A stretch of 64,000 nucleotides of DNA from Candidatus Eiseniibacteriota bacterium. Lineage in GTDB: Bacteria > Joyebacterota > Joyebacteria > Joyebacterales > Joyebacteraceae. Position numbers and translations under genes: made by a program. The stretch lies in contig JBDRFG010000106.1 in assembly GCA_043819135.1 (NCBI GenBank), positions 67,612 to 131,611 on the forward strand. The letters run 5' to 3'. Each line of letters begins with the position of its first letter. Position 1 is the first letter of the stretch. The notes under the pieces were generated by a model. That model saw only the letters and a program-made list of their open reading frames with translations. It searched no databases and was not told the origin of the DNA. Shown piece after piece: positions 7,264-52,522 of the stretch.

Positions 7264-7344
7264 GCGGTCCGACAGCGTCGTTTCACAGCTGACACTGCTG
7301 GAAGTGCTGTGACGGACAACACAATTCGGTCACAGGAGGAAGCA

Positions 7345-7641: not shown

Positions 7642-7743
7642 CGGCGACTCCGTGTGCCTTCGGGACGGCCCGGGCGCGGCGGCTCGACAGGCGCCGCTTT
7701 AGCCATCCGATGTCCGTGTGCCCCAACGGGGCGAGAGCGAGCT

Positions 7744-8031
7744 ATGAATCTCGGTAAAGTCGTAGGGACCGTGGTCTCGACCAGGAAGGACGAGAAGCTG
7801 GTCGGCACGAAGCTTCTGGTCGTCAGACAGATTGATCCTTCGGGAAGCGAGACAGGGACGTTCGTCGTGGCCGTGGATGCGGTCGGCGCCGGAACGGGGG
7901 AGGTCGTGCTGTACGCCAGCGGAAGCTCCGCGAGGCAGACGACGCTGACCCAGGACAGGCCCGCCGACGCGGTCATCATGGCGATCGTCGACGCGATCGA
8001 GATCGGGGGCGAGGTACTCTACACCAAGTAG
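7744..8031 (+). CDS. BMC-P vertex pentamer protein (EutN/CcmL/PduN family)
   Basis: [27 protein letters not shown]...[13 protein letters not shown] matches the EutN_CcmL fold. Internal ATG at 7744 of the longer track ORF. Confidence 0.85.
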
Positions 8032-8134
8032 CCTCATTGCGGCGATCCCGGATGGGGAGGAGGTCCGATCAGCCTGTGGGCGCGGAGCTTCTGTCTCTGT
8101 GGGATCGCTGCACTGTATCGGGGACGGCCAGTCC

Positions 8135-9568: not shown

Positions 9569-9599
9569 CGCGCGCGTAGCGGCCGCGACGGAGGACGAG

Positions 9600-10937: not shown

Positions 10938-10969
10938 CGAAACACGGGTGAAAGGGGAGGTACCGGTCG

Positions 10970-11518
10970 TTGAGAGAGGCAATCGGACTCATCGAGACAG
11001 TGAGCATCGCTATCGGCATCAGCGTGACCGATGAGATGGCCAAGACCGCCGATATCGAGGTGCTCGAATCGACGGCCATCTGTCCCGGCAAGTACATGGT
11101 CCTCATCGCGGGCGACGTGTCGTCCGTCGAGTCCTCGCTCAACCGCGGCATCGAGACGGGGGGGGACGTCGTGGTCGACACGCTCTTCATACCGCACGTC
11201 CACCCGCAGGTCTTCCCGGCGATCCTCGGAGCGACCGAGGTAGGGGACCTCCGTGCCCTTGGAGTCGTCGAGACGTTCACGGTCGCCTCGTCCATTCTGG
11301 CGGCAGACGCCGCCGCGAAGGCGGCGGGCGTCACACTGCTCGAGATACGACTGGCCAAGGGACTGGGTGGGAAGGCGTTCTTCACCATGATGGGAGAAGT
11401 GTTCGAGGTCGAGGCGGCCATGGAGGCCGCGCTTCGGGTGGCCAAGAGCGGCGGCAACCTCGTGAGGAGCGTCGTTATTCCCAGGCCGCACGAAAAGCTG
11501 CGTGCCAGCATACTGTAG
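10970..11518 (+). CDS. pduT: BMC-T shell protein, PduT-like tandem BMC-domain trimer with conserved Fe-S-ligating Cys
   Basis: Two tandem BMC domains (AIGLIETVSIA... and LGVVETFTVA...). The ICPGKYMVLIAGDVSSVESSL motif aligns with PduT, including the Cys that ligates the 4Fe-4S cluster. TTG start with AAAGGGGAGG RBS. Confidence 0.85.
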   Translation: MREAIGLIETVSIAIGISVTDEMAKTADIEVLESTAICPGKYMVLIAGDVSSVESSLNRGIETGGDVVVDTLFIPHVHPQVFPAILGATEVGDLRALGVVETFTVASSILAADAAAKAAGVTLLEIRLAKGLGGKAFFTMMGEVFEVEAAMEAALRVAKSGGNLVRSVVIPRPHEKLRASIL

Positions 11519-11542
11519 TCCCGCGGCGACGGAGGCAATTCG

Positions 11543-11812
11543 TTGCATCTTTGCAGAGTAATCGGCACGGTCTGGGCCACTCAGAAGGTCGACACCCTTA
11601 CGGGGTATCGCATGCTGGTCGTCCAGCCGCTCAGTCACGACCTCACGGAGAAGGGAACTCCAGTAGTCGCAGTGGACACGGTGAGCGCGGCGCCAGGGCA
11701 GCTGGTCTACATCGTTAAGTCGAGGGAGGCCGCCAAGGCCCTCGAGGAGCCTTTCAATCCGGTGGACGCGGCAATAGTGGGGATCGTCGACCACCTGCGC
11801 ACGTCGGCCTGA
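11543..11812 (+). CDS. BMC-P vertex protein (EutN/CcmL family), second paralog
   Basis: MHLCRVIGTVWATQKVDTLTGYRMLVVQP...VDTVSAAPGQLVYIV. TTG start with GGAGG RBS. Confidence 0.85.
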   Translation: MHLCRVIGTVWATQKVDTLTGYRMLVVQPLSHDLTEKGTPVVAVDTVSAAPGQLVYIVKSREAAKALEEPFNPVDAAIVGIVDHLRTSA

Positions 11813-11832
11813 TCGCGGCCCGGAGGTTATCC

Positions 11833-12105
11833 ATGTTCATTGCCAGGGTCATCGGCGAGGTCGTCTCGACGACAAAGCACCCTGCGCTACGGGGCAGAAA
11901 ACTCCTCGTGATCGAGAAGCTCACGGAGATGGGCGAGCCAACTGGAGACTCACAGCTGGCGGTCGACTCGGTCGACGCGGGGGAGGGGGACACGGTGCTC
12001 GTCATGGACGAGGGCAGTTCGGCCGCGCTGGTCACCGAGATGGACAATCCGCCCATCCGTACGGTGATCGTGGGCGTCGTCGACAGCGTGGACATCGAGG
12101 AGTAG
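11833..12105 (+). CDS. BMC-P vertex protein (EutN/CcmL family), third paralog
   Basis: MFIARVIGEVVSTTKHPALRGRKLLVIEK...VDSVDAGEGDTVLV. GGAGG RBS. Three BMC-P paralogs are typical of PVM-type loci. Confidence 0.85.
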   Translation: MFIARVIGEVVSTTKHPALRGRKLLVIEKLTEMGEPTGDSQLAVDSVDAGEGDTVLVMDEGSSAALVTEMDNPPIRTVIVGVVDSVDIEE

Positions 12106-12110
12106 CTGAT

Positions 12111-12923
12111 TTGCGTTCCGAGTTCGAGGCGAGAAGAGAGATCGTCGAGATAGGCAGGAGGCTATGGGAACGCGGCTACGTCGCGGCGAACGACGGCAAC
12201 ATCAGCGCGAGACTGGGCGACAGGATCCTAGTGACGCCGACCGGGCTGTCAAAGGGGTTCCTGAAGCCTTCCGACATGGTCGTCGTCTCTCCATCCGGCG
12301 AGAAGTTGTCGGGAGAGCTGGACCCCACGTCCGAGCTCCCGATGCACCTGGCCGTCTACAGGGCGAGGGCCAACGTCAGCGCGGTCGTTCACGCGCATCC
12401 GCCGAAGGCGACCGGCTTCGCCGTCGCGGGCGTACCACTCGCGCAATGCGTGCTTCCGGAGGTCATACTCACCCTGGGCGAGGTGCCGCTGGCCGGATAC
12501 GCGACTCCGTCGACCGAGGAGGTAGCGCGGTCGGTCAGTGAGTTCATCCCGCGCTACAACGCGATACTCCTGAGCAACCACGGCGTCCTCACGCTCGGGC
12601 GCGACCTGTCGCAGGCCTACTACCGCATGGAGACCGTTGAGCACTTCGCAGAGATAACGCTCGCTGCGAAGGCTCTGGGCGGGCCGTCGCCGCTCTCGAG
12701 CGACGACGTGCGAAAGCTCCTGAGCGTGCGGGACAAGCTCGGCCTGGAAACCGTGGCCGAGTGCACTGACTGCGGAGCATGCGCGGGCGCTTCGGCACCG
12801 GGCGGCGGTTCTACACCGGGCGGCGTCCCTCAGAAGGACGCCGAACCAGACGAAGAAGAGGTGGTCCGGGCCGTCCTGGCTCGGCTTGGCAAACTCATGG
12901 ATGAGAAAGGTGACCGGAGATGA
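12111..12923 (+). CDS. class II aldolase/adducin-family aldolase (L-fuculose-/L-rhamnulose-1-phosphate aldolase-like) with C-terminal extension (Cys motif + linker + amphipathic encapsulation helix)
   Basis: Class II aldolase features: the AVVHAHPP metal-binding His cluster and the VTPTGLSKG phosphate-binding loop. About 50 extra C-terminal residues: CTDCGAC, then a Gly/Ser/Pro linker, then EEEVVRAVLARLGKLMDE. TTG start with GAGGAG RBS. Confidence 0.8.
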   Translation: MRSEFEARREIVEIGRRLWERGYVAANDGNISARLGDRILVTPTGLSKGFLKPSDMVVVSPSGEKLSGELDPTSELPMHLAVYRARANVSAVVHAHPPKATGFAVAGVPLAQCVLPEVILTLGEVPLAGYATPSTEEVARSVSEFIPRYNAILLSNHGVLTLGRDLSQAYYRMETVEHFAEITLAAKALGGPSPLSSDDVRKLLSVRDKLGLETVAECTDCGACAGASAPGGGSTPGGVPQKDAEPDEEEVVRAVLARLGKLMDEKGDRR

Positions 12924-13813
12924 CACGTAAAGGATGCATCTGGGGATGGCTCATCGGCGTGCTCGCGCTGCTCGTCATCTTCCTCGTGACGATAGTGACC
13001 ATAGAATCGCTGCTGGGTCAGCAGCTGTCGCTCCCGTCCTACGGGGCGCGTGTCGGGCTCATCAGGGTGGAGGGGAGTATCTACGACTCCAGGCAGATCA
13101 TAGCGGACCTGGAGCAGATGGTCGGCAATCCGGGTATCAGCGCCATCGTCCTGAGGGTCGACAGCCCCGGTGGCGGAGTGGCCGCATCGCAGGAGATATT
13201 CGAGTACATCCGGGACGTCCAGGAGCAGGACGTACCGCTGGTCGTGTCGATGGGCTCCGTGGCCGCCTCCGGAGGTTACTACATAGCGTGCACGGCGGAC
13301 ACGATCGTCGCCAATCCAGGCACCCTGACGGGCAGCATCGGCGTCATCATGTCGTTCACCAATCTTGAGGAGCTGTTCGGGAAGCTCGGGATGGACTTCG
13401 AGGTCATAAAGAGCGGCAGATTCAAGGATGTGGGCTCCATGAGCAGGGAGATGACCGACGATGAACGGGAACTCCTGCAGGAGACCATCGACGACATACA
13501 CGCGCAGTTCATCGAGGCGGTTGCTGCGGGCAGGGGAATGGAGTACGACGCTGTCGCCGCGTTGGCCGACGGACGCATCTTCTCCGGCCGTCAGGCGCTC
13601 GAGGTCGGGCTCGTGGACCAGCTGGGGACTCTGGAGGACGCCGTGAGCATCGCGGCCCGCAGGGGCGGGATCGAGGGCGAACCCCGCGTGCAGGAGCCCG
13701 TCAGGCGTCAGCGGTTGACGCTCTGGGACCTTCTTTCGGGCGCCGCGTCGAGACTCCTTCCGCCCGAGGCCTCAAGCCTCGGTGCTCACTACATGTACAG
13801 GCCCTCCAAGTGA
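12920..13813 (+). CDS. sppA: signal peptide peptidase SppA (S49 family, 36K type)
   Basis: N-terminal TM helix and S49 motifs (SMGSVAASGGYYIA with the Ser nucleophile; GVIMSF). ATGA start/stop overlap with the aldolase gene. Confidence 0.8.
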   Translation: MTRKGCIWGWLIGVLALLVIFLVTIVTIESLLGQQLSLPSYGARVGLIRVEGSIYDSRQIIADLEQMVGNPGISAIVLRVDSPGGGVAASQEIFEYIRDVQEQDVPLVVSMGSVAASGGYYIACTADTIVANPGTLTGSIGVIMSFTNLEELFGKLGMDFEVIKSGRFKDVGSMSREMTDDERELLQETIDDIHAQFIEAVAAGRGMEYDAVAALADGRIFSGRQALEVGLVDQLGTLEDAVSIAARRGGIEGEPRVQEPVRRQRLTLWDLLSGAASRLLPPEASSLGAHYMYRPSK

Positions 13814-15585: not shown

Positions 15586-16935
15586 CTAGAAGCGGTAGGT
15601 AGCCTCAAAGATGAGGTCCGTATCGTCGACACTCTCGACGTACGCGTACTCGTCGTCCGCCCTCTCGTAGGTGCCGTTCATCCACGCGACATCGATAGCC
15701 AGCACGGTGTCGATGAGTATCCCTGCGCCCAGTGTGAAGTAGGAGCGGTCAGTTGTGACTTCCAGGCCATTGTACGCGATCGGCCGGTACGCGTAGCCGC
15801 CGCGAATCCGGAGGGGCCAGGAGGGAACCGTCAGCTCTGCGCCCACTCCGTACCCGACCTTCTCGTCGTAGAGGGCCCGCCGCTGGGGGACGTCGGCGCT
15901 CTCGTCTGTCTCGGTTATCCTGCCCGCGTAGTCCATCTCAGACCAGTCGGAGTAGCTGAGATCAGCTCCGACGACAATGAAATCCGCCGGCGCGTAGGCG
16001 ACTCCCGCGCGGAACGCGAAGGGCAGCGTCACCTTGTCGGAGAAGAACTCACTCCACTCACCGACCGTCGTAGAATCCGGCATCACCTTCCTGACGTAAT
16101 CCCACCCAGTGCCATCGAACGTCACCGCCGTCGGCGTGTCGATCGCGACTCCGACGGAAAGCCCCTCCATCGCATAGAAGAGACCTCCGATCGTTCCGCG
16201 AAAGCCGGTGATGTCGGCCTCAGACCGCTCCTGTAGGTGAACCTCAGTGTACGTTTCAGAGACATAGTCGACGGTGTCATAGATGTCCCAGACGAAGCCC
16301 CTTGAGTAGTCGCCAACGAGATAGGAGAAGGCAACGCCAAGCGATACAGTGGGAGAGACCTCAAGCGCACAGGCAGCGGACAGCGCCGTGATACCACCGT
16401 CGGAGACGTAGTCCTCTTTGTTATACCATACGCCGCTGGCATCGGGACCATCGACGCCGTCGTCGGGATGCTCGTCCCACTCTATCTCGCCGTCGTAGGC
16501 AGCCAACCTGTCTCCGGCGAAGTCATAGATCCGCTCGGCGCTGAAACCGAGGACAAGGCTGCCCCTGAACGTCGGGAACGGATAGGCGAAACGTAGCGAC
16601 GCCAGGTCCGTCCCACTCAGGTCGGTCCCAAACTCGCTGCCGGACATCTCGCCGTCTACCCCGAGCGAGCCTCTTCTGAAGCCGCCGGAGAGCTCGACCC
16701 TGTTCAACCGTGCCATCGCCGCCGGATTGGACATTATCGCGGTCGCATCGTCAGCGACCGCCATCGAGACGAACCCCATGCCGACTGCCCTCGCGCCGGT
16801 GGCGAGCGTGTTGGTGAGCGGTACCTCGTCCAGCGGAGCGACGAAGCCCGAGTCGGCCCTCGAGGCCGGCGGCGAAGCGAGCATCGCCAGAACGCCGGCA
16901 AGGACCGGGACGTACGTCAGCCGCTTCCTGCTCAT
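15586..16935 (-). CDS. outer-membrane beta-barrel protein, PorV/PorQ (FadL-like) family candidate
   Basis: Signal peptide MSRKRLTYVPVLAGVLAMLASPPASRA. N-terminal motif GARAVGMGFVSMAVADDATAIMSNPAAMA is shared with the PorV-like ORF at 48171. Alternating aromatic strands; C-terminal YRF (terminal Phe typical of OMPs). Start trimmed to the ATG at 16935, which has a GAGGAG RBS. Confidence 0.6.
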   Translation of the reverse strand: MSRKRLTYVPVLAGVLAMLASPPASRADSGFVAPLDEVPLTNTLATGARAVGMGFVSMAVADDATAIMSNPAAMARLNRVELSGGFRRGSLGVDGEMSGSEFGTDLSGTDLASLRFAYPFPTFRGSLVLGFSAERIYDFAGDRLAAYDGEIEWDEHPDDGVDGPDASGVWYNKEDYVSDGGITALSAACALEVSPTVSLGVAFSYLVGDYSRGFVWDIYDTVDYVSETYTEVHLQERSEADITGFRGTIGGLFYAMEGLSVGVAIDTPTAVTFDGTGWDYVRKVMPDSTTVGEWSEFFSDKVTLPFAFRAGVAYAPADFIVVGADLSYSDWSEMDYAGRITETDESADVPQRRALYDEKVGYGVGAELTVPSWPLRIRGGYAYRPIAYNGLEVTTDRSYFTLGAGILIDTVLAIDVAWMNGTYERADDEYAYVESVDDTDLIFEATYRF

Positions 16936-16948
16936 CCTCTTCTCCTCG

Positions 16949-17479
16949 CTAGAAACCCTTCTTCGGCTTCTTCCACAGGTTCCGCTCGTCCTTCTCCTTC
17001 TCTTCGTCCTTCTCTTCGTCCTTCTTGTCGTCCTTCTTGTCGTCCTTCTTGCTCGACAGGTTCGCAGGGGGCGTCGCGCGGCTAGTGCCGGACCCCGGCT
17101 TGGCGAAACCCCAGCCGCTGGATGCCCAGCCTCCGGGACTCCAGAGGTGCCTGGTACCCGTCTCCACCTCTGGCGCATCGTAGTCGTGATCGTAGTCGTG
17201 ATCGTAGTCGTATTGGTCCCACTGCCAGTGGTCGTTGTGCCACCAGGGGGAACCGTAGTAGCTGCCCCAGCGGTTGTGCGAACGTCCGTAGCTGTAGTAC
17301 GGATGACTGTACGGGTGGTAGTAGGCAGCGTCCGCGTGGCAGTCCGCACAGCTTCTGTAGGCGCTGCCCTCATGAGCCACGCTGCTCCCCGTCGGGTGCT
17401 GAAGAACCGTGTAACACCCGGTATTCAGGAGCAGAAGGGAGACCACGAGGAGCGCGCCCGCCTGCGCTGTCCGTTTCAT
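16949..17479 (-). CDS. His/Tyr/Trp-rich lipoprotein with CXXCH motif, YDHD tandem repeats and Lys/Asp/Glu-rich C-terminal tail
   Basis: Lipoprotein signal MKRTAQAGALLVVSLLLLNTG-C. CADCH matches the c-type heme-binding pattern. HPYSHPYYSY and DYDHDYDHDYD repeats. Tail is KKDDKKDDKKDEEKDEEKEKDE...KKPKKGF. GGAGAGGGGA RBS. Upstream of, and probably co-transcribed with, the OMP gene. Confidence 0.6.
   Translation of the reverse strand: MKRTAQAGALLVVSLLLLNTGCYTVLQHPTGSSVAHEGSAYRSCADCHADAAYYHPYSHPYYSYGRSHNRWGSYYGSPWWHNDHWQWDQYDYDHDYDHDYDAPEVETGTRHLWSPGGWASSGWGFAKPGSGTSRATPPANLSSKKDDKKDDKKDEEKDEEKEKDERNLWKKPKKGF
17177..17212. repeat. 12-nt tandem repeat (TAGTCGTGATCG x about 2.7) inside the lipoprotein gene
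   Basis: Direct sequence inspection. Encodes the in-frame DYDH repeat on the minus strand. Confidence 0.5.
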
Positions 17480-40093: not shown

Positions 40094-41098
40094 ATGGGGT
40101 TCAAGTTCGCGATCAACGGTTTCGGGAGGATCGGCAGGCTCGTTCTGCGCGTGGCGTCGGAGATGGACGGGTTCGATTGCGTGGCGGTGAATGACCTCAC
40201 GGACGCGGGAACAATGGCACACCTCCTCAAGTACGACTCGGTGCACGGGAAGTTCGGCGCGGAGATCTCGCACGACGACAGCTCAATAACGGTGAACGGC
40301 GACAGGTTCGCGTTCCACTCCGAGCGCGACCCCGCGAATCTGCCGTGGGGAGACCTCGGCGTCGACGTAGTCATCGAGTCGACGGGACACTTCAGGGACA
40401 GACCCGGGGCAGGCAAGCACCTGAGCGCCGGCGCGCGCAAGGTGATGATCTCGGCCCCCGCCAAGGACCCTGACGTGATGATAGTGATGGGCGTGAACGA
40501 TCAGGACTACGATCCTGCCAAGCATCACATCATCTCGACTGCGTCCTGCACGACCAACTGCGCAGCTCCGATGATCAAGGTCCTTCATGAGAGCTTCGGC
40601 GTCGTCAAGGGCATCATGACGACAGTGCACGCCTATACGAACGACCAGAAGATACTCGACTCCCCTCACAAGGACCTCCGACGCGCGAGAGCGGCGGCCG
40701 TCTCGATGATCCCGACGACCACCGGTGCGGCCAAGGCCATCACGACCGTGATGCCTGAGCTCGCCGGGAAGCTCGATGGGCTCGCCGTGCGCGTGCCCAC
40801 GCCCGACGGGTCGCTCGTCGACTTCGTCGTGCAGGTTGAGAAGAAGACCTCGGCCGCGGAGGTCAACGACGCGTTCCGAGCCGCGGCCCAGAGTCCGCCC
40901 CTCACGGGCTTTCTCAAGTACAGTGAGGAGCCGCTCGTGTCGATCGACATCGTCGGAGACCGCCACTCCTGCATCTTCGACAGCCCGTTGACGATCGTCA
41001 TGGACGGTGACATGGTCAAGATCTTTGGCTGGTACGACAACGAGGCCGGCTACGCGTCGCGCATGGTCGACATGATGAAGCTTGTCGCCAGCAGGTGA
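40094..41098 (+). CDS. gap: glyceraldehyde-3-phosphate dehydrogenase
   Basis: INGFGRIGR, ASCTTNC, catalytic Cys. AGGAGG RBS. Confidence 0.95.
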   Translation: MGFKFAINGFGRIGRLVLRVASEMDGFDCVAVNDLTDAGTMAHLLKYDSVHGKFGAEISHDDSSITVNGDRFAFHSERDPANLPWGDLGVDVVIESTGHFRDRPGAGKHLSAGARKVMISAPAKDPDVMIVMGVNDQDYDPAKHHIISTASCTTNCAAPMIKVLHESFGVVKGIMTTVHAYTNDQKILDSPHKDLRRARAAAVSMIPTTTGAAKAITTVMPELAGKLDGLAVRVPTPDGSLVDFVVQVEKKTSAAEVNDAFRAAAQSPPLTGFLKYSEEPLVSIDIVGDRHSCIFDSPLTIVMDGDMVKIFGWYDNEAGYASRMVDMMKLVASR

Positions 41099-43205: not shown

Positions 43206-43646
43206 ATGTTTGGAGCGATCCTGGGGATTCACATCGTGGTCTGTGCGGGGCTGATAGTGGCGGTGCTCCTGCAGTCAGGCAAGGGCGGCGGACTGGCCGG
43301 GGCGTTCGGCGGAGCCGGTGGTGTCGGAGCGGTGTTCGGTGGCCAGGCTGCCGCGACGTTTCTCACGAAGGCCACGCGGTATCTCGCCATCGCCTTCATG
43401 GTGACGTCGCTGAGCCTCGCGGTCACTCTGCGAGGGACCCTGAGGCGCGGGACGGTCACTCAGGGCCTGGAGGGAAGTCGGCCCGCGGCGGCCACGACGG
43501 CCGGAGAGATCGTGCCTCAGGAGGGAGCCCCGACGGAGCTCCCGGGGGCTGAGACGCCGACCGATGGCGCAGTCGAAACGACCGGAGACGAGGCTCAGAG
43601 CGGAGCCCCGGGCGAAGAGATTCCGGTTGCCCCCGAGACGGAGTAG
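43206..43646 (+). CDS. secG: preprotein translocase subunit SecG with extended C-terminal region
   Basis: N-terminal helix with LLQSGKGGGL and a Gly-rich loop. Conserved tpiA-secG-tRNA-Leu synteny. GGAGGA RBS. Confidence 0.8.
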   Translation: MFGAILGIHIVVCAGLIVAVLLQSGKGGGLAGAFGGAGGVGAVFGGQAAATFLTKATRYLAIAFMVTSLSLAVTLRGTLRRGTVTQGLEGSRPAAATTAGEIVPQEGAPTELPGAETPTDGAVETTGDEAQSGAPGEEIPVAPETE

Positions 43647-43713: not shown

Positions 43714-43800
43714 GCCCGGATGGTGGAACTGGTAGACACGCCATCTTGAGGGGGTGGTGGGCGAATGCCTGTGCGAGTTCGAGTCTCGCTCCGGGCACCA
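43714..43800 (+). tRNA. tRNA-Leu (anticodon GAG), class II tRNA with long variable arm, encoded CCA
   Basis: Acceptor stem GCCCGGA/TCCGGGC. Anticodon stem-loop CCATC-TTGAGGG-GGTGG with U33 and G37. T-arm GTTCGAGTC. 3' terminal ACCA. Confidence 0.85.
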
Positions 43801-43830
43801 TTAATGTGAGGCAGAACGCCTCGCGACGGC

Positions 43831-43866
43831 GGCAGAACGGGGGAACGTTCTGCCGCTTCTTCTTTG
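43831..43866 (+). terminator. rho-independent terminator after tRNA-Leu
   Basis: GGCAGAACG-ggggaa-CGTTCTGCC, a 9-bp stem, followed by GCTTCTTCTTTG. Confidence 0.6.
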
Positions 43867-44171
43867 TGGCGAGCTTTGTGGGCGAGCACGGCCCGTTCCC
43901 GCCATCGCGTGGGCCCCGTTTGTGACGAATGTCCCCTCAGGAACGACCTCCCAGACCCTGAATTGCGTTCATCAGCGACCCTGGCGGGCGCGTGAGCGCT
44001 TGACATGAGTCGGGGGAAGTATCATCGTTTAACTAGCGTACTGCTGAATGACTGGACTATGAACCCCGCCGACGACCGGAGAGCGCAGGCGATAGGCGCT
44101 TGCAGGGCCGGTCGAGCGGCGCGCTGAATTGTACCCAGAGCCCCCGCTGAACGTCGGCATGGAGCCACGCC

Positions 44172-47100
44172 ATGATTCGTCGAACGATAAGGCCTGTGGT
44201 CACCATCGTGCTGGTGCTTGGACTTGCCGCTCCGGTGGCGTGGTCCGCGCATCTCGACCACACGGTCAGCTTCGACGAAAGTGACCTCGTGGTTACCGAG
44301 CGGGATGGCTATGACGTCATCACGCTACGCGGCTGCGACCTGACGCGGGACATCGGCCTCCCTCAGCTTCCTGTGCTCCCGCTGACGCTTGCGCTCCCGA
44401 CGGGAGCCCGCGTCGTCGGAATCGAGATACTCGAGGCCGAGAGCAGCGAGCGTGTGGTCAAGCTACGCCCGATGCCTGGACAACATCCCCGCATCCTGCC
44501 CGTACCAGGATTGGACATCCCGTTCCATCCGTTCGTCGAGGCGGACCCGTCGGTCTACGGCGGAAAGAGACCCTATCCGGCCTCCATCGCCGAGCTCCGC
44601 TCGGCCGGGCATCTCGGCGACGCCCGGCTGGTCGGCGTTGCGGTCCACCCGGTTCAGTTCCTCCCGAGCGTGGGCAAGCTGCGTTTCTTCGGCAGCATCT
44701 CGATTCGACTCCACCTCGATCTGGCGGAGCAGGACACCCCGAGGACCCACCTTCCGGACCAGAGCAAGGTCGTCCGGATCCTGTCCGGCAACAATGACGC
44801 GGGCCGGCTGACGGCGGACCGGCGGCGGCTGTCGGACACCAGGCTCCAGGCCGGAGACTTCGAGCATGTCGTCATACTGGGCAACACCGCATTCGAGGAG
44901 GCGTTCACGCCGCTCGCCGCCTGGAAGACCGCCAAGGGCGTGCCATCCACGATGGTGTCCGTCACCTGGATCACGGCGAACTACCCCGGCGACGACGACC
45001 CGGAACGCATAAGAAACTTCGTGGCGGACGCGCACAACACGTGGGGAAGCGTGTGGTTCCTGCTCGCCGGAGACACGAACTGGGTTCCGACGAGGCACGC
45101 ATACGCGATGACCTGCGAGGCCGGCGGCCACGCGGAAGAGGACAACATCGGCTGCGACATGTACTTCGCCGACCTCGACGGCACCTGGAACGCGGACGGC
45201 GACGAAATCTACGGTGAACTGGCCGACGACGTCGATCTCTACCCGGAGGTCTTCGTCGGCAGGGCGCCCATCAGGACGATCGACGATGCCTCGGCTTTCG
45301 TAGAGAAGGTCGTGAATTACGAGCACGCGCAGTTCGACGATTTCCAGCTGGACATGCTGATGGCCGCCGAGGTGTTGTGGACCGACCCCTTCACCGATTC
45401 GGGGATCGCGCTCGATCGGATAGACCGGGAGCACGTCCCGCCGCGCTACGACCCCATAACGAAGCTGTACGAGACGCTCGGTAACGAGACGGGGGAGAGC
45501 GTCAAGCAGGCACTCAACAGCGGCCCCGGCCACTTCCTTCACAGCGGACACGCGTGGTACACGGTCATGGGCTGTGGAGGCGGCGACCTGTACCGCTGGG
45601 ACGTCGTCGAGCTGGCCAACGGCCACAGGCAGCCGCTCGTCTATTCCATAGGCTGCTGGCCGGCCGCTTTCGACCTGCCGGAGGACTGCATAGCGGAGCG
45701 CTTCCTTCAGAACCCAGGCGGCGGAGCCGTGGCGTTCATAGGGAACAGCAGGTACGGGTGGGCCTCTCCGGGCAACCCGGGCTACGGCTACTCGGAGAGA
45801 TTCATGCAGGAATTCTACCGCGTGCTTTTCGTCGAGCGGATCACGTCGGCCGGGGCGGCGCTCGCCGCTGCCAAGGCCGCCTTCGTTCCGTTCTCTCAGG
45901 CCGAGAACGTCTACCGCTGGCATCAGTATCAGCTCAATCTGCTCGGAGACCCGGAGATGCCGGTGTGGACGGCCGCGCCGACCCCGCTCGCGGTGGTGCA
46001 CCCCGACTCCGTGACCCCCGGACCGTCCGTCCTCGGCGTCTCCGTCAGGACCTCGGGGGGACCGCTCGAGGGGGCGCTGGTCTGCGCGAGCAACGGAAGT
46101 GACGTCTACGAGAGAGGCATCACATCGTCCGACGGCTCGGTGTCCCTGTCGGTCGACACCGTTCTGCCCGACAGCCTCACCATTACGGTCACAGCCGATG
46201 AACGCCTCCCGTACCAGAGCCGTATCCCGGTGGTGTTCTCGGGAGCGTTCATGCGGGCCGTCGGGGTCGAGGTGAACGACGCGGGAGCGAGCAACCGGGA
46301 CGGCGTCGCGGGCCCGGGCGAAACGGTCGACGTCTCCGTCGAGCTCCGGAACTTCGGCACCGACGAGGCGCCCGCGGTCGAAGCCACTCTCTACGCTACC
46401 GACGCCATGGTCGGCGTCCTCGCGGACCAGTCCTACTACGGAGACGTGCCCGGCGGAGCGGTCGCAGCGGGAACGTCTTCCTACGTGGTCACGATATCAC
46501 CGGACTGTCCGAACGGCCACGTGGCGGTTCTCGATGTCATCATCACATCGGGTGGCACGGGGGCGACCTGGACCGGCAGCGTCGCCTTCACCGTCGGAGC
46601 ACCCGTGCTTCAGACGGTGTCCTACTCCTTCGACGACACGTGGGGCGGAGACGGCGACGGCACCGCCGAACCCGGCGAGAGTGTGAGGCTCCTGGTCGAG
46701 GTCAGGAACTCGGGGCTTGCCGACGCGCTGTCCCCGTCGTTCACGCTGTCGACGGACGACACGCCCGTAGATGTCACATCGCCGATCGCGGCTCTCCCTG
46801 AGATCCCGTCCGACGACTCGGGCAGCCTCGTCTTCGAACTGCTCGTCTCTTCGGAGTGTCCCGTGCCCGCGTTCCCCCTTCTCGTGCTTGATGCGGTCAC
46901 CTCCGACGGCCTCTGTTTGTCGGACACGCTCCGCGTGACGGTGGGAAGCTCCGGATCCTACTACGATTTCGAATCGGGGCCCTCGGAGTGGACGCAAGGT
47001 GGCCCTTCCAACATCTGGGCACTCACGGACCACCGGACACACTCGGGAACCGCCAGCTGGTACGCCGGGACTCAGGGCGTGTGGCAGTACCCGGACAACG

Positions 47101-47750
47101 CGGACGCCTGGCTCGACTCGCCCGAGTTCGTGAGGGGAGCGGGCGCCGAGCTGTCGTTCTGGTGCTGGTACGAGTTTCCCATCTACCACGAAGACGGGTT
47201 CTACGTGGAGGTCCTGTCGTCCGGAGTCGCCATCGACACGCTCGACTTCATAGGCAGCGGCGGAGCTCTCGACATGCTGGGCTCGGTGGGCAACGACTGG
47301 CTCGAATACCGCTACCGGCTCCCTGGGACCGTCGGCGACACGCTCCATATCAGGTTCAGACTCACGACCGATGACGCGGAGGTGGCCGAGGGAGTGTACG
47401 TCGACGACGTCTCCGTCGTCATGGCCGACGCGCCGGCGGGAACGGGCGTCGAGGGCGCGCAGGACGAGGGGCCCATGCTCTTCCTCCACCAGAACCACCC
47501 GAATCCGTTTAGCCCCTCCACGCTGATCAGCTTCTCGTTGCTGACGGCGGGGAACGTGGAACTCACGCTGTACAACATCCAGGGCCGACTGATCCGAACC
47601 CTGGCGGAGGAGACACGCCAGGCAGGAGAATACGAGGTTGCGTGGGACGGCACCGACGAGTTCGGCGTCGACGTCGCGGCAGGCATGTACCTGTACAGAC
47701 TTCGCCTGGGCGAGCAGGAAGAAACACGCAAGATGATCCTCGTGCGCTAG
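44172..47750 (+). CDS. secreted peptidase C25 (gingipain-like) family protein with T9SS C-terminal sorting domain
   Basis: Signal peptide. C25-like core with candidate catalytic His (LHSGHAWYTV) and Cys (YSIGCWPAAFD) and a caspase-like fold signature. Ig/CARDB-like middle repeats. C-terminal HQNHPNPFSPSTLISFSL...LTLYNIQGRLIRTL...MYLYRLRL is typical of the type A T9SS CTD (Por_Secre_tail). Confidence 0.75.
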   Translation: MIRRTIRPVVTIVLVLGLAAPVAWSAHLDHTVSFDESDLVVTERDGYDVITLRGCDLTRDIGLPQLPVLPLTLALPTGARVVGIEILEAESSERVVKLRPMPGQHPRILPVPGLDIPFHPFVEADPSVYGGKRPYPASIAELRSAGHLGDARLVGVAVHPVQFLPSVGKLRFFGSISIRLHLDLAEQDTPRTHLPDQSKVVRILSGNNDAGRLTADRRRLSDTRLQAGDFEHVVILGNTAFEEAFTPLAAWKTAKGVPSTMVSVTWITANYPGDDDPERIRNFVADAHNTWGSVWFLLAGDTNWVPTRHAYAMTCEAGGHAEEDNIGCDMYFADLDGTWNADGDEIYGELADDVDLYPEVFVGRAPIRTIDDASAFVEKVVNYEHAQFDDFQLDMLMAAEVLWTDPFTDSGIALDRIDREHVPPRYDPITKLYETLGNETGESVKQALNSGPGHFLHSGHAWYTVMGCGGGDLYRWDVVELANGHRQPLVYSIGCWPAAFDLPEDCIAERFLQNPGGGAVAFIGNSRYGWASPGNPGYGYSERFMQEFYRVLFVERITSAGAALAAAKAAFVPFSQAENVYRWHQYQLNLLGDPEMPVWTAAPTPLAVVHPDSVTPGPSVLGVSVRTSGGPLEGALVCASNGSDVYERGITSSDGSVSLSVDTVLPDSLTITVTADERLPYQSRIPVVFSGAFMRAVGVEVNDAGASNRDGVAGPGETVDVSVELRNFGTDEAPAVEATLYATDAMVGVLADQSYYGDVPGGAVAAGTSSYVVTISPDCPNGHVAVLDVIITSGGTGATWTGSVAFTVGAPVLQTVSYSFDDTWGGDGDGTAEPGESVRLLVEVRNSGLADALSPSFTLSTDDTPVDVTSPIAALPEIPSDDSGSLVFELLVSSECPVPAFPLLVLDAVTSDGLCLSDTLRVTVGSSGSYYDFESGPSEWTQGGPSNIWALTDHRTHSGTASWYAGTQGVWQYPDNADAWLDSPEFVRGAGAELSFWCWYEFPIYHEDGFYVEVLSSGVAIDTLDFIGSGGALDMLGSVGNDWLEYRYRLPGTVGDTLHIRFRLTTDDAEVAEGVYVDDVSVVMADAPAGTGVEGAQDEGPMLFLHQNHPNPFSPSTLISFSLLTAGNVELTLYNIQGRLIRTLAEETRQAGEYEVAWDGTDEFGVDVAAGMYLYRLRLGEQEETRKMILVR

Positions 47751-47825
47751 CTCAAGCGGCGGTGCTGGACCCACGGCGGATGTCCCTGTCACCGGACGCG
47801 CCGGGAACCAGGGTCGGGAGAACGC

Positions 47826-48110
47826 GTGAACGTCCTTCAGGAAGCCCGGCCGGTTGAGATCAGGATGGACGAGGAAAGCCGTCGACTTGCAAGTGTGTCT
47901 GTCTCTACACTTCTCTACATGATCGACTACGGACTGGCGAAGGAGAGAGATCTGGGACGCCACGAGATCAACCTCGGTTATCTCGCGGACGATGAGTGTG
48001 ACCTGCTTGAAGCCCTGAGGCTGTCGGAGCGTCTAAGGAGAGTAGCAACGAACATTCGGCGGACCGGCAGAACCAACGAGAGGATCCGCGCCGAACTAGT
48101 CCGAAGATGA
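47826..48110 (+). CDS. hypothetical small protein (94 aa), weakly supported
   Basis: Only plausible ORF in the 420-bp gap. GTG start with GGGAGA upstream. No recognisable motif. Confidence 0.25.
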   Translation: MNVLQEARPVEIRMDEESRRLASVSVSTLLYMIDYGLAKERDLGRHEINLGYLADDECDLLEALRLSERLRRVATNIRRTGRTNERIRAELVRR

Positions 48111-48170
48111 TCCGGACGCCAGAACGGACGGATGCGCTGATCTATTCTCTCTTTACAACGGACGAGAAGA

Positions 48171-49196
48171 ATGCTAAGAGTGGCTCTGATGAAGGGCGAC
48201 GTGACAAGAACGACAGCGCGGGAAACCCGCCGCCGCTCGGTCGGGTGTATCCTGGCCGTGTCTCTCGTGCTGACCGTAGCCAATGGCGGCAGTGCCCACG
48301 CGGCGAACAAGTACGCCGGAGAGTTCCTGACTCATGGGGTCGGGGCCCGAGCGCTTGGCATGGGCAGCGCTTTTGTCGCGGTTGCTGATGATGTCACGGC
48401 AGGATACTGGAACCCCGCCGGCGTCGCGGACGCCCAAGCGCGCTCGGTGCAGCTGATGCACTCGGAGACGTTCGGAGACGTGGTCAACTACGACACCGGC
48501 GCGTACGTTCACCCTCTGTCGAGCGACGCGGCACTCGCGGTGACGTTCGTCAGGCTGGCCGTGGATGACATCCCGTTCACGGACTTCGAGTCGGACGAGG
48601 AGAGGATCTACTACGACGCGTCCCGTATCACCTGGGAGAGCGACTCGGAGGAGGCCGCACTCGTCACCTACGCGCGCAGGACTTCTGAGCGGCTGCGCCT
48701 GGGCGGGAACCTCAAGCTGATCAGGAAGATCATCGGCAACTACTCCTGCTACGGATTAGGGTTCGATCTTGGAGCCAAGTACGACGTGACGCCGAGTACT
48801 ACGCTCGGCGTGAACGTCCAGGATGCGACCACGACCTACCTGGTCTGGGACACCCGGGAGCGAGAGCGCATCATGCCCACCGTGAAGGTGGGAGTGGCCT
48901 ATTCTCGACCCGTGTTGTCGATGGACGGCGTCGTGACCGCGGCGGCGGATGTCGACGTGAGGTTCGAGAACAGGCTTCTGGCAGATGAGTATCACGTGGG
49001 TTCTATCTCGGCGGACACTCACTACGGCGTCGAGTTCGTCTACAGGAAGATGGTAGGCGTCAGGGCGGGGCTGGCGATGGGTCAGCTGACCGCCGGTGCG
49101 GGGCTCAGCCTCGCAGGATTCACGGTCGATTACGCGTTTGGAAAGCATCAGTATCTGGACTCGAGTCACCGGGTGTCGGCTTCCTACGGATTCTGA
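48171..49196 (+). CDS. PorV/PorQ-family outer-membrane beta-barrel protein (T9SS-associated, FadL-like)
   Basis: Signal peptide ...ILAVSLVLTVANGGSAHA. The family-typical N-terminal motif GVGARALGMGSAFVAVADDVTAGYWNPAGVA. C-terminal aromatic SASYGF. Confidence 0.65.
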   Translation: MLRVALMKGDVTRTTARETRRRSVGCILAVSLVLTVANGGSAHAANKYAGEFLTHGVGARALGMGSAFVAVADDVTAGYWNPAGVADAQARSVQLMHSETFGDVVNYDTGAYVHPLSSDAALAVTFVRLAVDDIPFTDFESDEERIYYDASRITWESDSEEAALVTYARRTSERLRLGGNLKLIRKIIGNYSCYGLGFDLGAKYDVTPSTTLGVNVQDATTTYLVWDTRERERIMPTVKVGVAYSRPVLSMDGVVTAAADVDVRFENRLLADEYHVGSISADTHYGVEFVYRKMVGVRAGLAMGQLTAGAGLSLAGFTVDYAFGKHQYLDSSHRVSASYGF

Positions 49197-49296
49197 CACC
49201 CCCCCGGAGTCTCTGGCCAGCCGAATGTGAGCAGGGAAAGGGAGCACGACCGGATCCCGTTCAGTCAATGCCCTCCCGCGAAAGGAGACGCTACAG

Positions 49297-50679
49297 ATGA
49301 GGAAAGCCCATGTGAGGCGGTACATGATGATTCCGGCCGCCGTTCTAGCAGCGCTCGGGCTCGTGTTGTGGACCGGGTGCGGCAAGGACCTGATGTCACC
49401 GGACGACCAGCCACCATCGGGATCCACGATCACTAACCCTGTCGACGCGACGAGCCTGAACAAGAGCGTGATCAACGTCCGGGGACGGGCCGAGGTCGGT
49501 GCGACGATCGACGTGTTCGTCAACGATGACCTCAAGGGCACCGGCGGCGCCTCGCCGGCGGTGCCGAACGACGGACTCGGCGGCCGATACACCGTGGAGA
49601 GCGTCGACCTGGGCCTCGAGGGCGTGAAGGTCCTTCGGGCCAGGATCACGGACCTCTACGGCAATGTGGCTACCTCCCTGGAGACGCCGGTCATAACGAT
49701 TACTCTCGACCAGACCGCTCCGCCGGTCGCGCTCGAGGGCGTCGAGGGCGCCACGTGGGTGGACACTCTGGGTTTCTGGGGTGTCGGCTTCTGGGAGACC
49801 GGCCTGCCCGTGATAATCGTCTCGGGAAGCACGGATTCGACCGCCGCGGGCGCGAGGCTCCGCGTCGGCCTCAACGAGCACGCCGCCAGCGAACTCGTGG
49901 CGGACCCCGGAAGCAGCGCGGTCAACTTCACGATCGATGTCCCGTCCCCGCCGCTGGCGGGAGGGCACGCGGACACTCTCATAACGTACTTTCTCGAGGC
50001 ATTCGACGCAGCGGGCAACGTCACCGCAGAGCCGCTCCTCGTACACTGGGAGGTCGAGGGCAGGGAGCTGGAACTCTCTCACGACGACGGGATCTACAAC
50101 AGCTTTGACCACACCGTCAGCGGCACCGCCGGCGACGAGATAGCCGTGCGATTCCAGGCGCCAACCTGGGCGAACTACGTCACCAAGTTCATCTTCTACT
50201 CCGCGAACGACCAGCAGGATAATCCGATAGACCCGCAGTTGCCCACAACGTGGCCGTTCACCGCGTGGGTCTGGCACTGCAACTTGAGTGACATGCCAGG
50301 CAACAAAGGGAACGACGGCTACATGCCCTTCACGGAGCCTTACTCTTATCCGGAGGACGCGTGGGTCGAGATCACATTCCCGACCGCGGAAGATATCTCC
50401 GACAACGCGCACTACCCGGACAAGAAATTCTTCGTCGGTCTCGAGTGGGAGCACAGGCTGAGTCCTCACATCTACGAGGATCACTCGGACCCCCTCGACT
50501 ACTGTAGCTTCCTCAAGATCTATTTCGCCAACGTCTGGGATCTTCGTACCCAGGCCGACACGATGATCCGTGCGGTCGTCTCGGACGTGCCCACACTCGG
50601 CGAGGGCAGAGAGGCGGTCCTCATCCCCGTGCGCGTCAAGCGCCAGGGTCCGCGCGCGTTGAGCGCTGGAGACAGATAG
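49297..50679 (+). CDS. lipoprotein with Ig-like/Big-type beta domains, function unknown
   Basis: Lipobox LVLWTG-C. AAAGGAGA RBS. Beta-rich repeats. Confidence 0.55.
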   Translation: MRKAHVRRYMMIPAAVLAALGLVLWTGCGKDLMSPDDQPPSGSTITNPVDATSLNKSVINVRGRAEVGATIDVFVNDDLKGTGGASPAVPNDGLGGRYTVESVDLGLEGVKVLRARITDLYGNVATSLETPVITITLDQTAPPVALEGVEGATWVDTLGFWGVGFWETGLPVIIVSGSTDSTAAGARLRVGLNEHAASELVADPGSSAVNFTIDVPSPPLAGGHADTLITYFLEAFDAAGNVTAEPLLVHWEVEGRELELSHDDGIYNSFDHTVSGTAGDEIAVRFQAPTWANYVTKFIFYSANDQQDNPIDPQLPTTWPFTAWVWHCNLSDMPGNKGNDGYMPFTEPYSYPEDAWVEITFPTAEDISDNAHYPDKKFFVGLEWEHRLSPHIYEDHSDPLDYCSFLKIYFANVWDLRTQADTMIRAVVSDVPTLGEGREAVLIPVRVKRQGPRALSAGDR

Positions 50680-50868
50680 CACGCTCTCAGGAACGCGAAG
50701 AGAAGAAGCCCCGGCTCGGTTCGAGCCGGGGCTTCCCTTCGTGTGTGTTCGTGCGCGCGTTCACGTTCGCGTCTGTGCTTGTGGGTGTGTTCGTTCGTGC
50801 GCTCGCGCACCCCGGCGTGCGCCCCGCACGCGCTCTCGCGGGATCGCCGCAGCTGCTATCGAGACGTC

Positions 50869-52422
50869 CTACATGTTGCGTATGGTGATGACGTCGCCCG
50901 GGTAGATCCTGGAGTGCCAGGCCAACCCATTCCAGCGCAGCACGTCCCTCGTGCTCTTGCTGTGCCTCCGCGCTATCGACGAGACGGTATCTCCGCGGCG
51001 AACGCGGTAGTTGACAGTCGGGGAGAGGTCGGCGTGCTCCGACAGGTTGTCGGCTCCGGGGCCTATCGGAATCACGATGTAGCTCCCGGAACGGATGCTG
51101 TGTGGGTTTCCTATTTCGTTGACCGACGTTATCGCTGAAATGCTCGTGCCGTAGGCCTTCGCGATACCGGAGAGGGTCTCCCCCCGCGAAACGCGATGCC
51201 TCTGCCAGGTGACCCGGTCCTCCGGCGGGATCGCCTCGATCGCGGAGAGGCACTGCCTCCCGCTGCCGGTCGGGACCCTCACCGTAGCGCAGGATCTGCT
51301 CGGCGGCGTGCACCAGCGACGCAGCGCTGGATTGAGTCTCTTGATGTCATCGTAGCTCGTCCCGGTGGCGTCGGCGATGACCTGCAGATCGACAGCATCG
51401 GTGATCTCGATCGTGTCGTAGGAAAGCGCCTCGCCGCTCGTCGGGATGGCAAACCCGTACTCGGATGGATTCGCTCCAATCATGACCACGGCCATGAATT
51501 TCGGCACGAAATTCTCCGTCTCCCTCGGAAGATCCAGACACCAGTAGTCAGGGCACGAGGGGCTTTTCCTCCGTGCGCGCTCGACGCGCCCTTCCCCAGA
51601 GTTGTATCCGGCCAGTGACAACTCCCACGTGCCGAACCTCTCATACAACTCTTTGAGATAGGTGCACGCGGCACGCGTCGCCTTCTCCGGATCGCGTCGT
51701 TCGTCGATCCACCAGTCGACCCTGAGTCCATACATCCTGGCGCGGCTCGAGATGAACTGCCACATGCCGGCGGCGTGCGCCTTCGAGTAGGCGTTGGGAT
51801 TCAGGCCGCTCTCTATGACCGCAAGATAGAATAGCTCCGGGGGAAGACCCTCTTCTTCGAGGATCCGGTCTATCATCGGACGGTACCGAGGGAAGCGCGT
51901 CAACCAGCGCTCCATGTCCTTGCGTCCCCTGCCCTGGAAGTAGTCCAGCCACTTCTGAACGCGGTCGTTCGTCACCGTGACGACCGGAGCGCCGCAGCCC
52001 GACCTCGGCTCCGTCGGTTCCAGGACCGCGAGTGGTATGGTATCGATTCGCGCCGTCTCCGTCAGCATCGTCGGCGCGGAGTCGCCCCCTCGGCCGTCGA
52101 CCGCCGCCAGGAAGTACTCCACGCGCGACTTAAGCGAGGATTTCTCTGACCGGAGTTCCGCGTTTTCGGGGTGGGCGTCACCGAGTTCGGCCAGGGCCTG
52201 CCTGAGGAGCGGCCGTGCCTCGTCAAGGGCGTCCGTCACGTAGTGGGCGAGGGCCTCTCTGTAGAGAAGGTCAGCCGCCGCGATCGACTCGGCGGCTGAG
52301 GCGCCGTCCTGAGCGAGCGTCCTCACCTCGTCGCCGGACGAGGGCGACAGCCGCGAGGTCGCGGAGCAACCCGCCACCAGAACAACGGCGAACGACGCTA
52401 GGGCAACTCGAAAGAGCTTCAT
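50869..52422 (-). CDS. mltD: membrane-bound lytic murein transglycosylase D-like (SLT domain + LysM repeats) lipoprotein
   Basis: SLT catalytic motif ...ESGLNPNAYSKAHAAGMWQF.... Two or three C-terminal LysM repeats (YRVRRGDTVSSIARRH..., HRVSRGETLSGIAKAYG...). Lipobox VLVAG-C. Start set at the internal ATG at 52422 so that the promoter at 52494 is not overlapped. Confidence 0.8.
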   Translation of the reverse strand: MKLFRVALASFAVVLVAGCSATSRLSPSSGDEVRTLAQDGASAAESIAAADLLYREALAHYVTDALDEARPLLRQALAELGDAHPENAELRSEKSSLKSRVEYFLAAVDGRGGDSAPTMLTETARIDTIPLAVLEPTEPRSGCGAPVVTVTNDRVQKWLDYFQGRGRKDMERWLTRFPRYRPMIDRILEEEGLPPELFYLAVIESGLNPNAYSKAHAAGMWQFISSRARMYGLRVDWWIDERRDPEKATRAACTYLKELYERFGTWELSLAGYNSGEGRVERARRKSPSCPDYWCLDLPRETENFVPKFMAVVMIGANPSEYGFAIPTSGEALSYDTIEITDAVDLQVIADATGTSYDDIKRLNPALRRWCTPPSRSCATVRVPTGSGRQCLSAIEAIPPEDRVTWQRHRVSRGETLSGIAKAYGTSISAITSVNEIGNPHSIRSGSYIVIPIGPGADNLSEHADLSPTVNYRVRRGDTVSSIARRHSKSTRDVLRWNGLAWHSRIYPGDVITIRNM

Positions 52423-52493
52423 GAGCGGCGAGACTAGCGTCTGGACACGAGCCGTTGCAAGCAAAAACGCGCCGGCGCCGCGCGGGGCCCTCA

Positions 52494-52522
52494 TTGACTG
52501 TACCTTGACCATTGTGTATAAT
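52494..52522 (+). promoter_or_regulatory. near-consensus sigma70 promoter (TTGACT-N17-TATAAT) for the GGDEF gene
   Basis: TTGACT 52494-52499, exact 17-nt spacer, TATAAT 52517-52522. Implies a transcription start near 52529, i.e. downstream of the first ATG of the track ORF. Confidence 0.55.

Follow-up and report, generated by a model that had tools for sequence, protein, structure and literature searches.

A conserved core operon downstream of tRNA-Leu encodes a gingipain-like C25 peptidase and a PorV/PorQ-family barrel in a Candidatus Eiseniibacteriota genome

Organization of the locus

A block of four genes downstream of a tRNA-Leu gene was analyzed in a 64,000-nucleotide stretch of DNA from a Candidatus Eiseniibacteriota bacterium (GenBank assembly GCA_043819135.1, contig JBDRFG010000106.1, positions 67,612 to 131,611 of the forward strand), the whole of which is referred to here as the window. 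The block encodes a C25-family cysteine peptidase that ends in a T9SS (type IX secretion system) type A C-terminal domain (CTD), a protein of 94 amino acids (aa), an outer-membrane beta-barrel of the PorV/PorQ family, and a lipoprotein. An earlier note on this DNA had taken the block for a candidate accessory island. Its occurrence at one and the same site in 24 related species and its normal composition mark it as an ordinary operon of the core genome, inherited rather than mobile, in which some of the content is lineage specific. The principal features are as follows (positions are those of the window).

43714-43800 (+), tRNA-Leu gene with anticodon GAG (ARAGORN; Rfam tRNA model, 47 bits)
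43828-43867 (+), intrinsic-terminator-like hairpin with a T-run, which ends the secG-tRNA unit
44172-47750 (+), C25-family cysteine peptidase precursor, 1192 aa (Pfam, NCBIfam, family profile against PDB, and AlphaFold2 secondary structure)
47826-48110 (+), orf94, small conserved protein of 94 aa, always between the C25 and barrel genes in 20+ genomes
48171-49196 (+), PorV/PorQ-family outer-membrane beta-barrel, 341 aa (NF033709)
49297-50679 (+), lineage-specific lipoprotein, 460 aa (lipobox and AlphaFold beta-sandwich model)

The tRNA gene is the sole one that ARAGORN found in the window, and the spacer from its end to the ATG of the C25 gene at 44172 is 371 bp long. The terminator hairpin and T-run were placed at 43828-43857 by the hairpin search; the stem has 12 pairs, 8 of which are G-C, and is followed by TCTTCTTTGT; its sequence is conserved in the relatives L001, L004, and L005 (L numbers denote the loci of the homolog survey described below). 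The C25 peptidase, orf94, barrel, and lipoprotein genes follow the spacer on the same strand, separated by only 60 to 100 bp, and no strong terminator was found inside the block. Together with the terminator after the tRNA gene and an invariant motif upstream of the C25 gene, this suggests that the block is a transcription unit of its own whose four genes are probably co-transcribed. An Rfam scan of 43.0 to 51.5 kb gave no match besides the tRNA.

The gene content that the earlier note had ascribed to the locus was borne out. The gap-pgk-tpiA-secG genes, tRNA-Leu(GAG), the terminator, and a gap of about 370 bp are all present. The 1192-aa secreted C25 peptidase with a type A T9SS CTD was confirmed by Pfam and NCBIfam matches, the PorV/PorQ-family barrel by a score of 113.5 bits with NF033709 (cut-off, 90), the immunoglobulin (Ig)-like lipoprotein by an invariant lipobox and a beta-sandwich AlphaFold model, and the small open reading frame (ORF) between the C25 and barrel genes by its coding-type substitution pattern.

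Conservation of the block and the island hypothesis

A profile of the C25 protein was scanned against one genome per GTDB species, which yielded 80 loci with 10-kb flanks. The neighbors in the window were placed in these loci by tblastn, with confirmation by hidden Markov models. The syntenic set consists of the 24 loci whose C25 identity is at least 50% (range, 50 to 89%), namely, L001-L020, L024, L041, L043, and L062. As far as the contigs extend, gene order and orientation are the same as in the window in all 24 of these species-level genomes. The conserved order is fba-gap-pgk-tpiA-secG-tRNA-Leu-C25-orf94-barrel-lipoprotein-mltD (opposite strand)-GGDEF-yqeC, with comEC next where the contig reaches that far. 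According to ARAGORN, all 22 loci that cover the upstream flank have a tRNA-Leu(gag) gene between secG and the C25 gene.

The composition of the block is also that of its surroundings. Its G+C content ranges from 0.62 to 0.67 in 1-kb bins, compared with about 65% for the window, and its tetranucleotide distance over 7 kb corresponds to a z-score of about 1. The three large genes have G+C contents at third codon positions (GC3) of 0.84, 0.80, and 0.83 and codon-usage z-scores of +1.0, −0.7, and +0.2 relative to 44 genes of the window; they are thus typical of the window. The highest G+C content of the window (0.70 at 56 to 58 kb, inside comEC) and its largest tetranucleotide deviation (56 to 63 kb) fall outside the block.

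In the earlier note, the block was read as a candidate accessory island that had inserted at the tRNA-Leu 3' end. The block does lie directly 3' of a tRNA gene, beginning after a terminator and a gap, and secreted proteases are often variable among strains. However, none of the 24 relatives examined lacks the block at this site, even at protein identities as low as 50%, and neither its composition nor its codon usage departs from what is typical of the window. No second copy (at least 12 nucleotides) of the tRNA 3' end was detected in the 64 kb, flanking direct repeats were imperfect and at chance level only, and no integrase or recombinase gene was present among the ORFs of 43.7 to 52.5 kb, which agrees with what the note itself had said about the absence of an integrase, direct repeat, or tRNA fragment. 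The protease is not strain variable as that note had supposed: its median identity in deep relatives is 53%, and it diverges about as much as the neighboring MltD and GGDEF genes. Apart from a housekeeping glycosylase gene that has been lost, the junction shows no insertion or deletion. The island claim is therefore refuted by the shared gene order and the uniform composition, and integration at this site is considered extremely improbable; the T9SS gene identities and theme of the earlier note stand, and its accessory-island headline does not.

The boundaries of the block are formed by the following features.

40094-41098, gap, followed by pgk, tpiA, and secG (Pfam-confirmed)
43206-43646 (+), secG, last protein gene of the fba-gap-pgk-tpiA-secG array (Pfam SecG, 1e-20; syntenic in 22 relatives)
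50727-50751 (+), weak terminator-like hairpin 3' of the lipoprotein gene and ahead of the convergent mltD-like gene (5-pair stem and T-rich tail; weak match)
50869-52512 (−), MltD-like lytic transglycosylase with SLT and two LysM domains (Pfam and NCBIfam; syntenic in 12 relatives), the conserved downstream boundary

Downstream of the lipoprotein gene, the convergent MltD-like transglycosylase gene is followed by genes for a GGDEF protein, YqeC, and ComEC. Housekeeping genes surround the block, including mreBCD-pbp2-rodA-lgt, pfk, fba, the glycolytic genes, mltD, and comEC. The remainder of the window is likewise core genome, with lipopolysaccharide glycosyltransferases, a microcompartment locus, sppA, accBC, ftsK, miaB, and radC in addition to mreBCD-pbp2-rodA-lgt, pfk, and fba. 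The microcompartment locus, at about 6200 to 13000, encodes a phosphate propanoyltransferase (PTAC), an aldehyde dehydrogenase, an RnfC/Nuo51-like flavoprotein, a tandem-BMC shell protein, and a class II aldolase.

A lost glycosylase gene and a putative promoter in the spacer

In the relatives, the spacer between the tRNA and C25 genes falls into two length classes, of about 230 to 400 bp and about 870 to 1070 bp. The long form carries a gene for an endonuclease-III-like HhH-GPD glycosylase of about 215 aa, which is intact in 13 relatives, both near and distant, and matches 3-methyladenine glycosylase and endonuclease III models. This gene is the only variable element 3' of tRNA-Leu and has been lost from the window genome. 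A deletion of about 620 bp is common to the window and L005 in the alignment (counterpart regions, L001:9137-9790 and L005:9597-10010), and a short remnant of the gene is left in the window. Since both the remnant and the shared deletion are of the glycosylase gene, the 371-bp gap is a gene-loss scar rather than an integration site. Two features lie in the spacer.

43915-43953 (+), remnant of the 3' end of the glycosylase gene, 13 codons (tblastn, 13 aa, 85% identical to the L001 gene over its residues 203-215)
44000-44028 (+), promoter-like element (TTGACA at 44000-44005, a 17-nucleotide spacer, and CATCGT at 44023-44028)

The sequence CTTGACA (43999-44005) is invariant in 21 aligned regions upstream of the C25 gene that are otherwise 31% identical. 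In the second hexamer, CATCGT, position 2 (A) and position 6 (T) are invariant in the 21 genomes and the other positions vary. CTTGACA and this A and T are the sole invariant bases upstream of the C25 gene across the 21 genomes. The element TTGACA-N17-cAtcgT is thus probably the promoter of the C25 operon itself. An automated promoter scan made no call at 43999-44028. An RNA structure upstream of the C25 gene was also considered and was rejected, as the conserved region shrinks to the promoter-like motif across the clade.

The C25 peptidase

The 1192-aa protein shares 100% identity with an NCBI protein labeled "Candidatus Eisenbacteria bacterium" from a metagenome-assembled genome (MAG). It begins with a signal peptide (aa 1-26), a gingipain-type prodomain (aa 40-183), and a catalytic domain (aa 234-597), followed by an Ig-like domain (aa 603-685), two CARDB-like sandwiches (aa ~691-925), and a MAM/choice-of-anchor J domain (aa 936-1082), the choice-of-anchor J model scoring above its cut-off. 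Peptidase_C25 (PF01364) matches the catalytic domain with 207.9 bits (cut-off, 23; 3.5e-61) over model positions 2-373 of 374, and Propeptide_C25 (PF08126) matches with 34.3 bits (cut-off, 22). In the type A CTD, TIGR04183 scores 33.5 bits (cut-off, 23) over aa 1110-1190 of 1192 and FlgD_ig scores 38.4 bits; Pfam Por_Secre_tail stays below its cut-off (19.6 versus 27). A low-confidence linker (aa 1087-1099) precedes the CTD in the AlphaFold2 model. The positions of the catalytic dyad and of the CTD are as follows.

45549-45551 (+), codon of catalytic His460, invariant in 20 homologs and aligned to RgpB His211
45654-45656 (+), codon of catalytic Cys495, invariant in 20 homologs and aligned to RgpB Cys244
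47499-47747 (+), T9SS type A C-terminal sorting domain, aa 1110-1192 (TIGR04183 and FlgD_ig)

A family profile built from 20 sequences was compared with PDB. It matched RgpB with 85 bits, pairing His211/Cys244 with His460/Cys495, and matched the prodomains of Kgp (5mun; 43 bits, 1.6e-10) and RgpB (4ief_A; 1.6e-7). PorU (6za2) was matched through the CTD only, with 24 bits. The PorU model NF033707 scored 77.5 bits in three stretches, of which the best is the CTD (cut-off, 420), and the PorU2 N-terminal model NF052324 scored 32 bits over the catalytic core (cut-off, 450). The AlphaFold2 model has a predicted local distance difference test (pLDDT) score of 66.9, with aa 304-601 below 50, and a Foldseek search with this low-pLDDT model gave template modeling (TM) scores of 0.45 for RgpB (target) and 0.12 for PorU among generic Ig-repeat proteins. 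On the grounds of the sequence scores and the architecture, the protein is classed as gingipain-like and not as PorU-like.

The C25 family is widespread. Homologs of about 1190 aa with 34 to 44% identity (best tblastn segment) occur in Zixibacteria, Gemmatimonadota, Latescibacterota, KSB1, Cloacimonadota, and Ignavibacteria-labeled MAGs, and some genomes of these other phyla have two copies. Outside the syntenic clade, the homologs do not adjoin a PorV-like gene, and no conserved partner was found beside them; the only recurring neighbors are further C25 paralogs. In the Ignavibacteria-labeled locus L081 (10001-20314), the C25 gene is duplicated in tandem, both copies have a dockerin in place of the T9SS CTD, and they are followed by a gene for an M6 peptidase that also has a dockerin. 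These tandem homologs have a PorV-like ortholog 6 kb upstream of them.

The PorV/PorQ-family barrel

The match of the barrel to NF033709 extends over aa 50-341 and model positions 4-326 of 326. At the level of equivalogs, all scores are below the cut-offs: 26.5 bits for PorV (NF033710; cut-off, 250), 59.4 bits for PorQ (NF033711; cut-off, 220), and 187.4 bits for PorV2 (NF052325; cut-off, 325). PorV2 is the best of these matches, covering model positions 3-331 of 354, and orthologs from other phyla show the same pattern, with PorV2 scores of 164 to 199 bits. The match to PorV of Flavobacterium johnsoniae (6h3i) is weak.

No other gene of the block is as conserved as that of the barrel. The identity of the barrel across the clade is 66 to 93%, and its median identity in deep relatives is 71%, compared with 74% for glyceraldehyde-3-phosphate dehydrogenase (GAPDH), 53% for C25, 52% for orf94, and 45% for the lipoprotein. 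Orthologs with 39 to 46% identity occur between mutS and yicC in five KSB1-type contigs (L083, L084, L086, L087, and L088). The array there, xseAB-nadK-mutS-[barrel]-yicC-(remA)-gmk-rpoZ-coaBC-udg-dnaB-relA, is a second, independent conserved context of the barrel, and this housekeeping setting suggests that the barrel is a core envelope component.

A CTD protein of 1325 aa encoded upstream of a barrel ortholog in L085, a Cloacimonetes-labeled contig, was considered as a possible PorU or PorU2 and proved to be neither. The window also contains a second barrel of the PorV superfamily, a 612-aa outer-membrane protein (15589-17424, −) that matches FadL/Toluene_X and, below threshold, BamG (58 bits) as well as the PorV/PorQ family (47 bits). 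Its codon-usage score is the lowest among the large genes (z, −2.2).

orf94 and the lipoprotein

The product of orf94 looks helical and has no signal peptide, and it matched nothing in Pfam or NCBIfam. Judging from the pattern of substitutions, orf94 is a real gene: substitutions amount to 0.53 at the third codon position versus 0.35 and 0.28 at the others, and the comparison with the closest ortholog shows 21 synonymous and 11 nonsynonymous codon changes. The gene is lineage restricted, with 29 clusters among 1.84 billion representatives. It is the sole gene of the block with a deviating composition (G+C, 0.565; GC3, 0.63; codon-usage z, −3.5).

The lipoprotein has an invariant Gly-Cys lipobox. 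The AlphaFold model of the protein (pLDDT, 83.5) consists entirely of beta-sandwiches, with matches to Ig-like and lectin-like domains; a fold search with the model returned only generic Ig-like, lectin-like, and jelly-roll sandwiches, with no enzyme fold among them. In total, 84 homologs were found, none with a Pfam domain, and the few with a named source are hypothetical proteins of Ca. Eisenbacteria. The lipoprotein gene is present in two tandem copies in L041 (14948-17846).

Proposed function of the operon

In Bacteroidota, PorV shuttles proteins with type A CTDs, and cargo genes cluster with the genes of cognate PorV-like barrels (PMC10202324). By analogy, we favor, with moderate confidence, the reading that the block is a vertically inherited operon that provides a T9SS-sorted surface or secreted protease, the PorV-type shuttle of this lineage, and two accessory proteins. 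The protease would be made as a zymogen with an inhibitory N-terminal prodomain and would cross the inner membrane via Sec. Its CTD would be recognized by the type IX translocon, from which the PorV-family barrel would take over CTD-bearing proteins and hold or shuttle them at the cell surface. After removal of the prodomain, the protease would degrade extracellular protein. The lipoprotein may serve as an accessory surface or periplasmic binding partner, and the orf94 product appears to be a small, cytoplasmic-looking protein specific to the lineage. Sec export, prodomain latency, CTD recognition, and the shuttling or anchoring role of the barrel are all modeled on Bacteroidota in this scheme.

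Several observations weigh against this assignment. SprA/Sov and PorK, PorL, PorM, and PorN were not found in the 64-kb window, and because no other core gene is present there, the CTD and the PorV-family barrel are the only grounds on which the organism is inferred to have a T9SS. The barrel stays under the cut-offs of the PorV, PorQ, and PorV2 equivalogs. The low-confidence catalytic domain of the AlphaFold2 model (pLDDT, <50) did not separate a gingipain-like from a PorU-like fold. In addition, the C25 proteins retain 37 to 44% identity across phyla over about 1190 aa, more than most degradative exoenzymes do. The label of cargo could itself be wrong, since porU-porV, too, is recognized by a C25-family CTD protein encoded beside a PorV-family gene.

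The C25-barrel pair might accordingly be the functional porU-porV equivalent of this lineage, in which case the C25 enzyme would remove the CTDs of all cargo proteins and stay bound to the barrel through its own uncleaved CTD, with orf94 and the lipoprotein as lineage-specific accessory parts. The gene for a C25-type Cys/His enzyme that carries a type A CTD adjoins that of a PorV-family barrel, and this adjacency is kept over 24 species; each syntenic genome occurs only once among the 80 loci; the C25 protein diverges at housekeeping-like rates; and its length and architecture are conserved across phyla. The protein also matches PorU (in the three stretches noted above) and the PorU2 N-terminal model weakly. 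PorU is itself a CTD protein that remains bound to PorV (PMC10202324).

However, both model scores are far under the PorU and PorU2 cut-offs, with the CTD alone providing the best PorU stretch, and the family profile misses the catalytic domain of PorU in PDB while finding the gingipains and their prodomains. At about 83 aa, the CTD has the length usual for cargo, and a flexible linker precedes it. The C25 homologs outside the clade are not beside a PorV-like gene and include tandem paralogs with dockerin tails, and barrel orthologs elsewhere have no C25 neighbor. The architectures differ as well. PorU reportedly has three N-terminal domains before its catalytic domain and a dyad at H657/C690, whereas the C25 protein has one gingipain-type prodomain and a dyad at H460/C495, about 200 residues nearer the N terminus. 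Equivalence to porU-porV is the main rival reading but is considered rather unlikely. A more specific version, in which an enzyme of gingipain architecture performs T9SS attachment in place of a PorU-class protein, within a four-part module with the PorV2-like barrel, the lipoprotein, and orf94, is likewise unlikely; it would amount to an alternative attachment complex of the T9SS outside Bacteroidota.

The four neighbors could also be functionally unrelated, with the barrel a general housekeeping outer-membrane protein and the gene order kept by inertia in a slowly rearranging region. The whole 20-kb fba-yqeC region is collinear in the clade, so that conserved adjacency alone is weak evidence of coupling, and the KSB1-type barrel sits among genes of DNA repair and nucleotide metabolism. 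Against this stand the shared strand, the short spacers of 60 to 100 bp without a strong internal terminator, and the presence of the lineage-specific orf94 and lipoprotein genes at this position only. A CTD protein beside a PorV-family barrel also has a clear mechanistic rationale (PMC10202324). A chance association of this kind is judged quite improbable, and the operon that supplies a T9SS-sorted protease with its barrel is retained as the preferred reading.

Taxonomic context and implications

Two NCBI labels, "Ca. Eisenbacteria" and "Ca. Effluviviaceae," occur side by side in the syntenic clade. The syntenic locus L007 is labeled Ca. Effluviviaceae, in the NCBI phylum Ca. Effluviviacota (VGIX01), which has been described as a sister lineage of Eisenbacteria (PMC11323493). 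Eisenbacteria-labeled loci at 37 to 41% C25 identity (L040, L057, and L077) lack the synteny. In view of the label of L007 and of these low-identity loci, the syntenic clade may correspond to the phylum Ca. Effluviviacota.

A tRNA gene followed by a secreted protease gene resembles an island, yet the locus is core genome here, and the block should therefore not be counted as mobile or strain variable. Its sequence documents T9SS-type sorting parts in this lineage, namely, the type A CTD and the PorV-family barrel, which is strongly conserved and is not covered by any curated PorV, PorQ, or PorV2 equivalog, and the operon has two lineage-restricted proteins fixed inside it. No report linking type IX secretion to this lineage was found in the literature searched. 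If the protease were the CTD-processing enzyme of the lineage, it would reveal the workings of type IX attachment outside Bacteroidota.

Comparison with known systems

The block shares with tRNA-linked genomic islands its position immediately 3' of a tRNA gene. Unlike them, it has no integrase, repeats, compositional shift, or presence/absence variation.

PorV2 and PorU2 are modeled in NCBIfam as a putative second type IX sorting pair. The barrel aligns with PorV2 end to end, with 187 bits, but remains under the cut-off of 325, and the C25 protein matches PorU2 only with 32 bits against a cut-off of 450. These sub-cut-off scores indicate that the barrel family is a sister group of PorV2 rather than a member of it. 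A literature search for PorU2/PorV2 as a described system returned nothing relevant.

The attachment complex of Bacteroidota consists of the PorU sortase, the PorV shuttle, PorQ, and PorZ. As there, an enzyme of the C25 fold with a CTD is encoded beside a PorV/PorQ-family barrel; the PorV of that complex binds CTDs of type A (PMC10202324). However, the scores are 77.5 against 420 for PorU and 26.5 against 250 for PorV, the N terminus of the C25 protein is gingipain-like, two unrelated lineage-specific genes are interleaved in the block, and no PorZ-like or PorQ-like gene is nearby.

Another parallel in layout is offered by T9SS cargo proteins paired with cognate barrels, such as type B CTD proteins with PorP/SprF or PorZ with PorQ, where a CTD protein is encoded beside a possibly specific PorV-like barrel (PMC10202324). 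The CTD here is of type A rather than type B, and the barrel belongs to the PorV/PorQ family rather than to PorP/SprF.

The gingipains RgpB and Kgp of Porphyromonas gingivalis (MEROPS C25) share with the C25 protein the Propeptide_C25 domain, the aligned His/Cys dyad, an Ig-like domain that follows the catalytic one, and a CTD of type A. They differ from it in sequence, the identity to RgpB being about 16% in a structural alignment whose catalytic model is of low pLDDT. The C25 protein has, in addition, about 400 aa of CARDB-like and MAM/choice-of-anchor J domains, and its host belongs to a free-living FCB-group lineage outside Bacteroidota.

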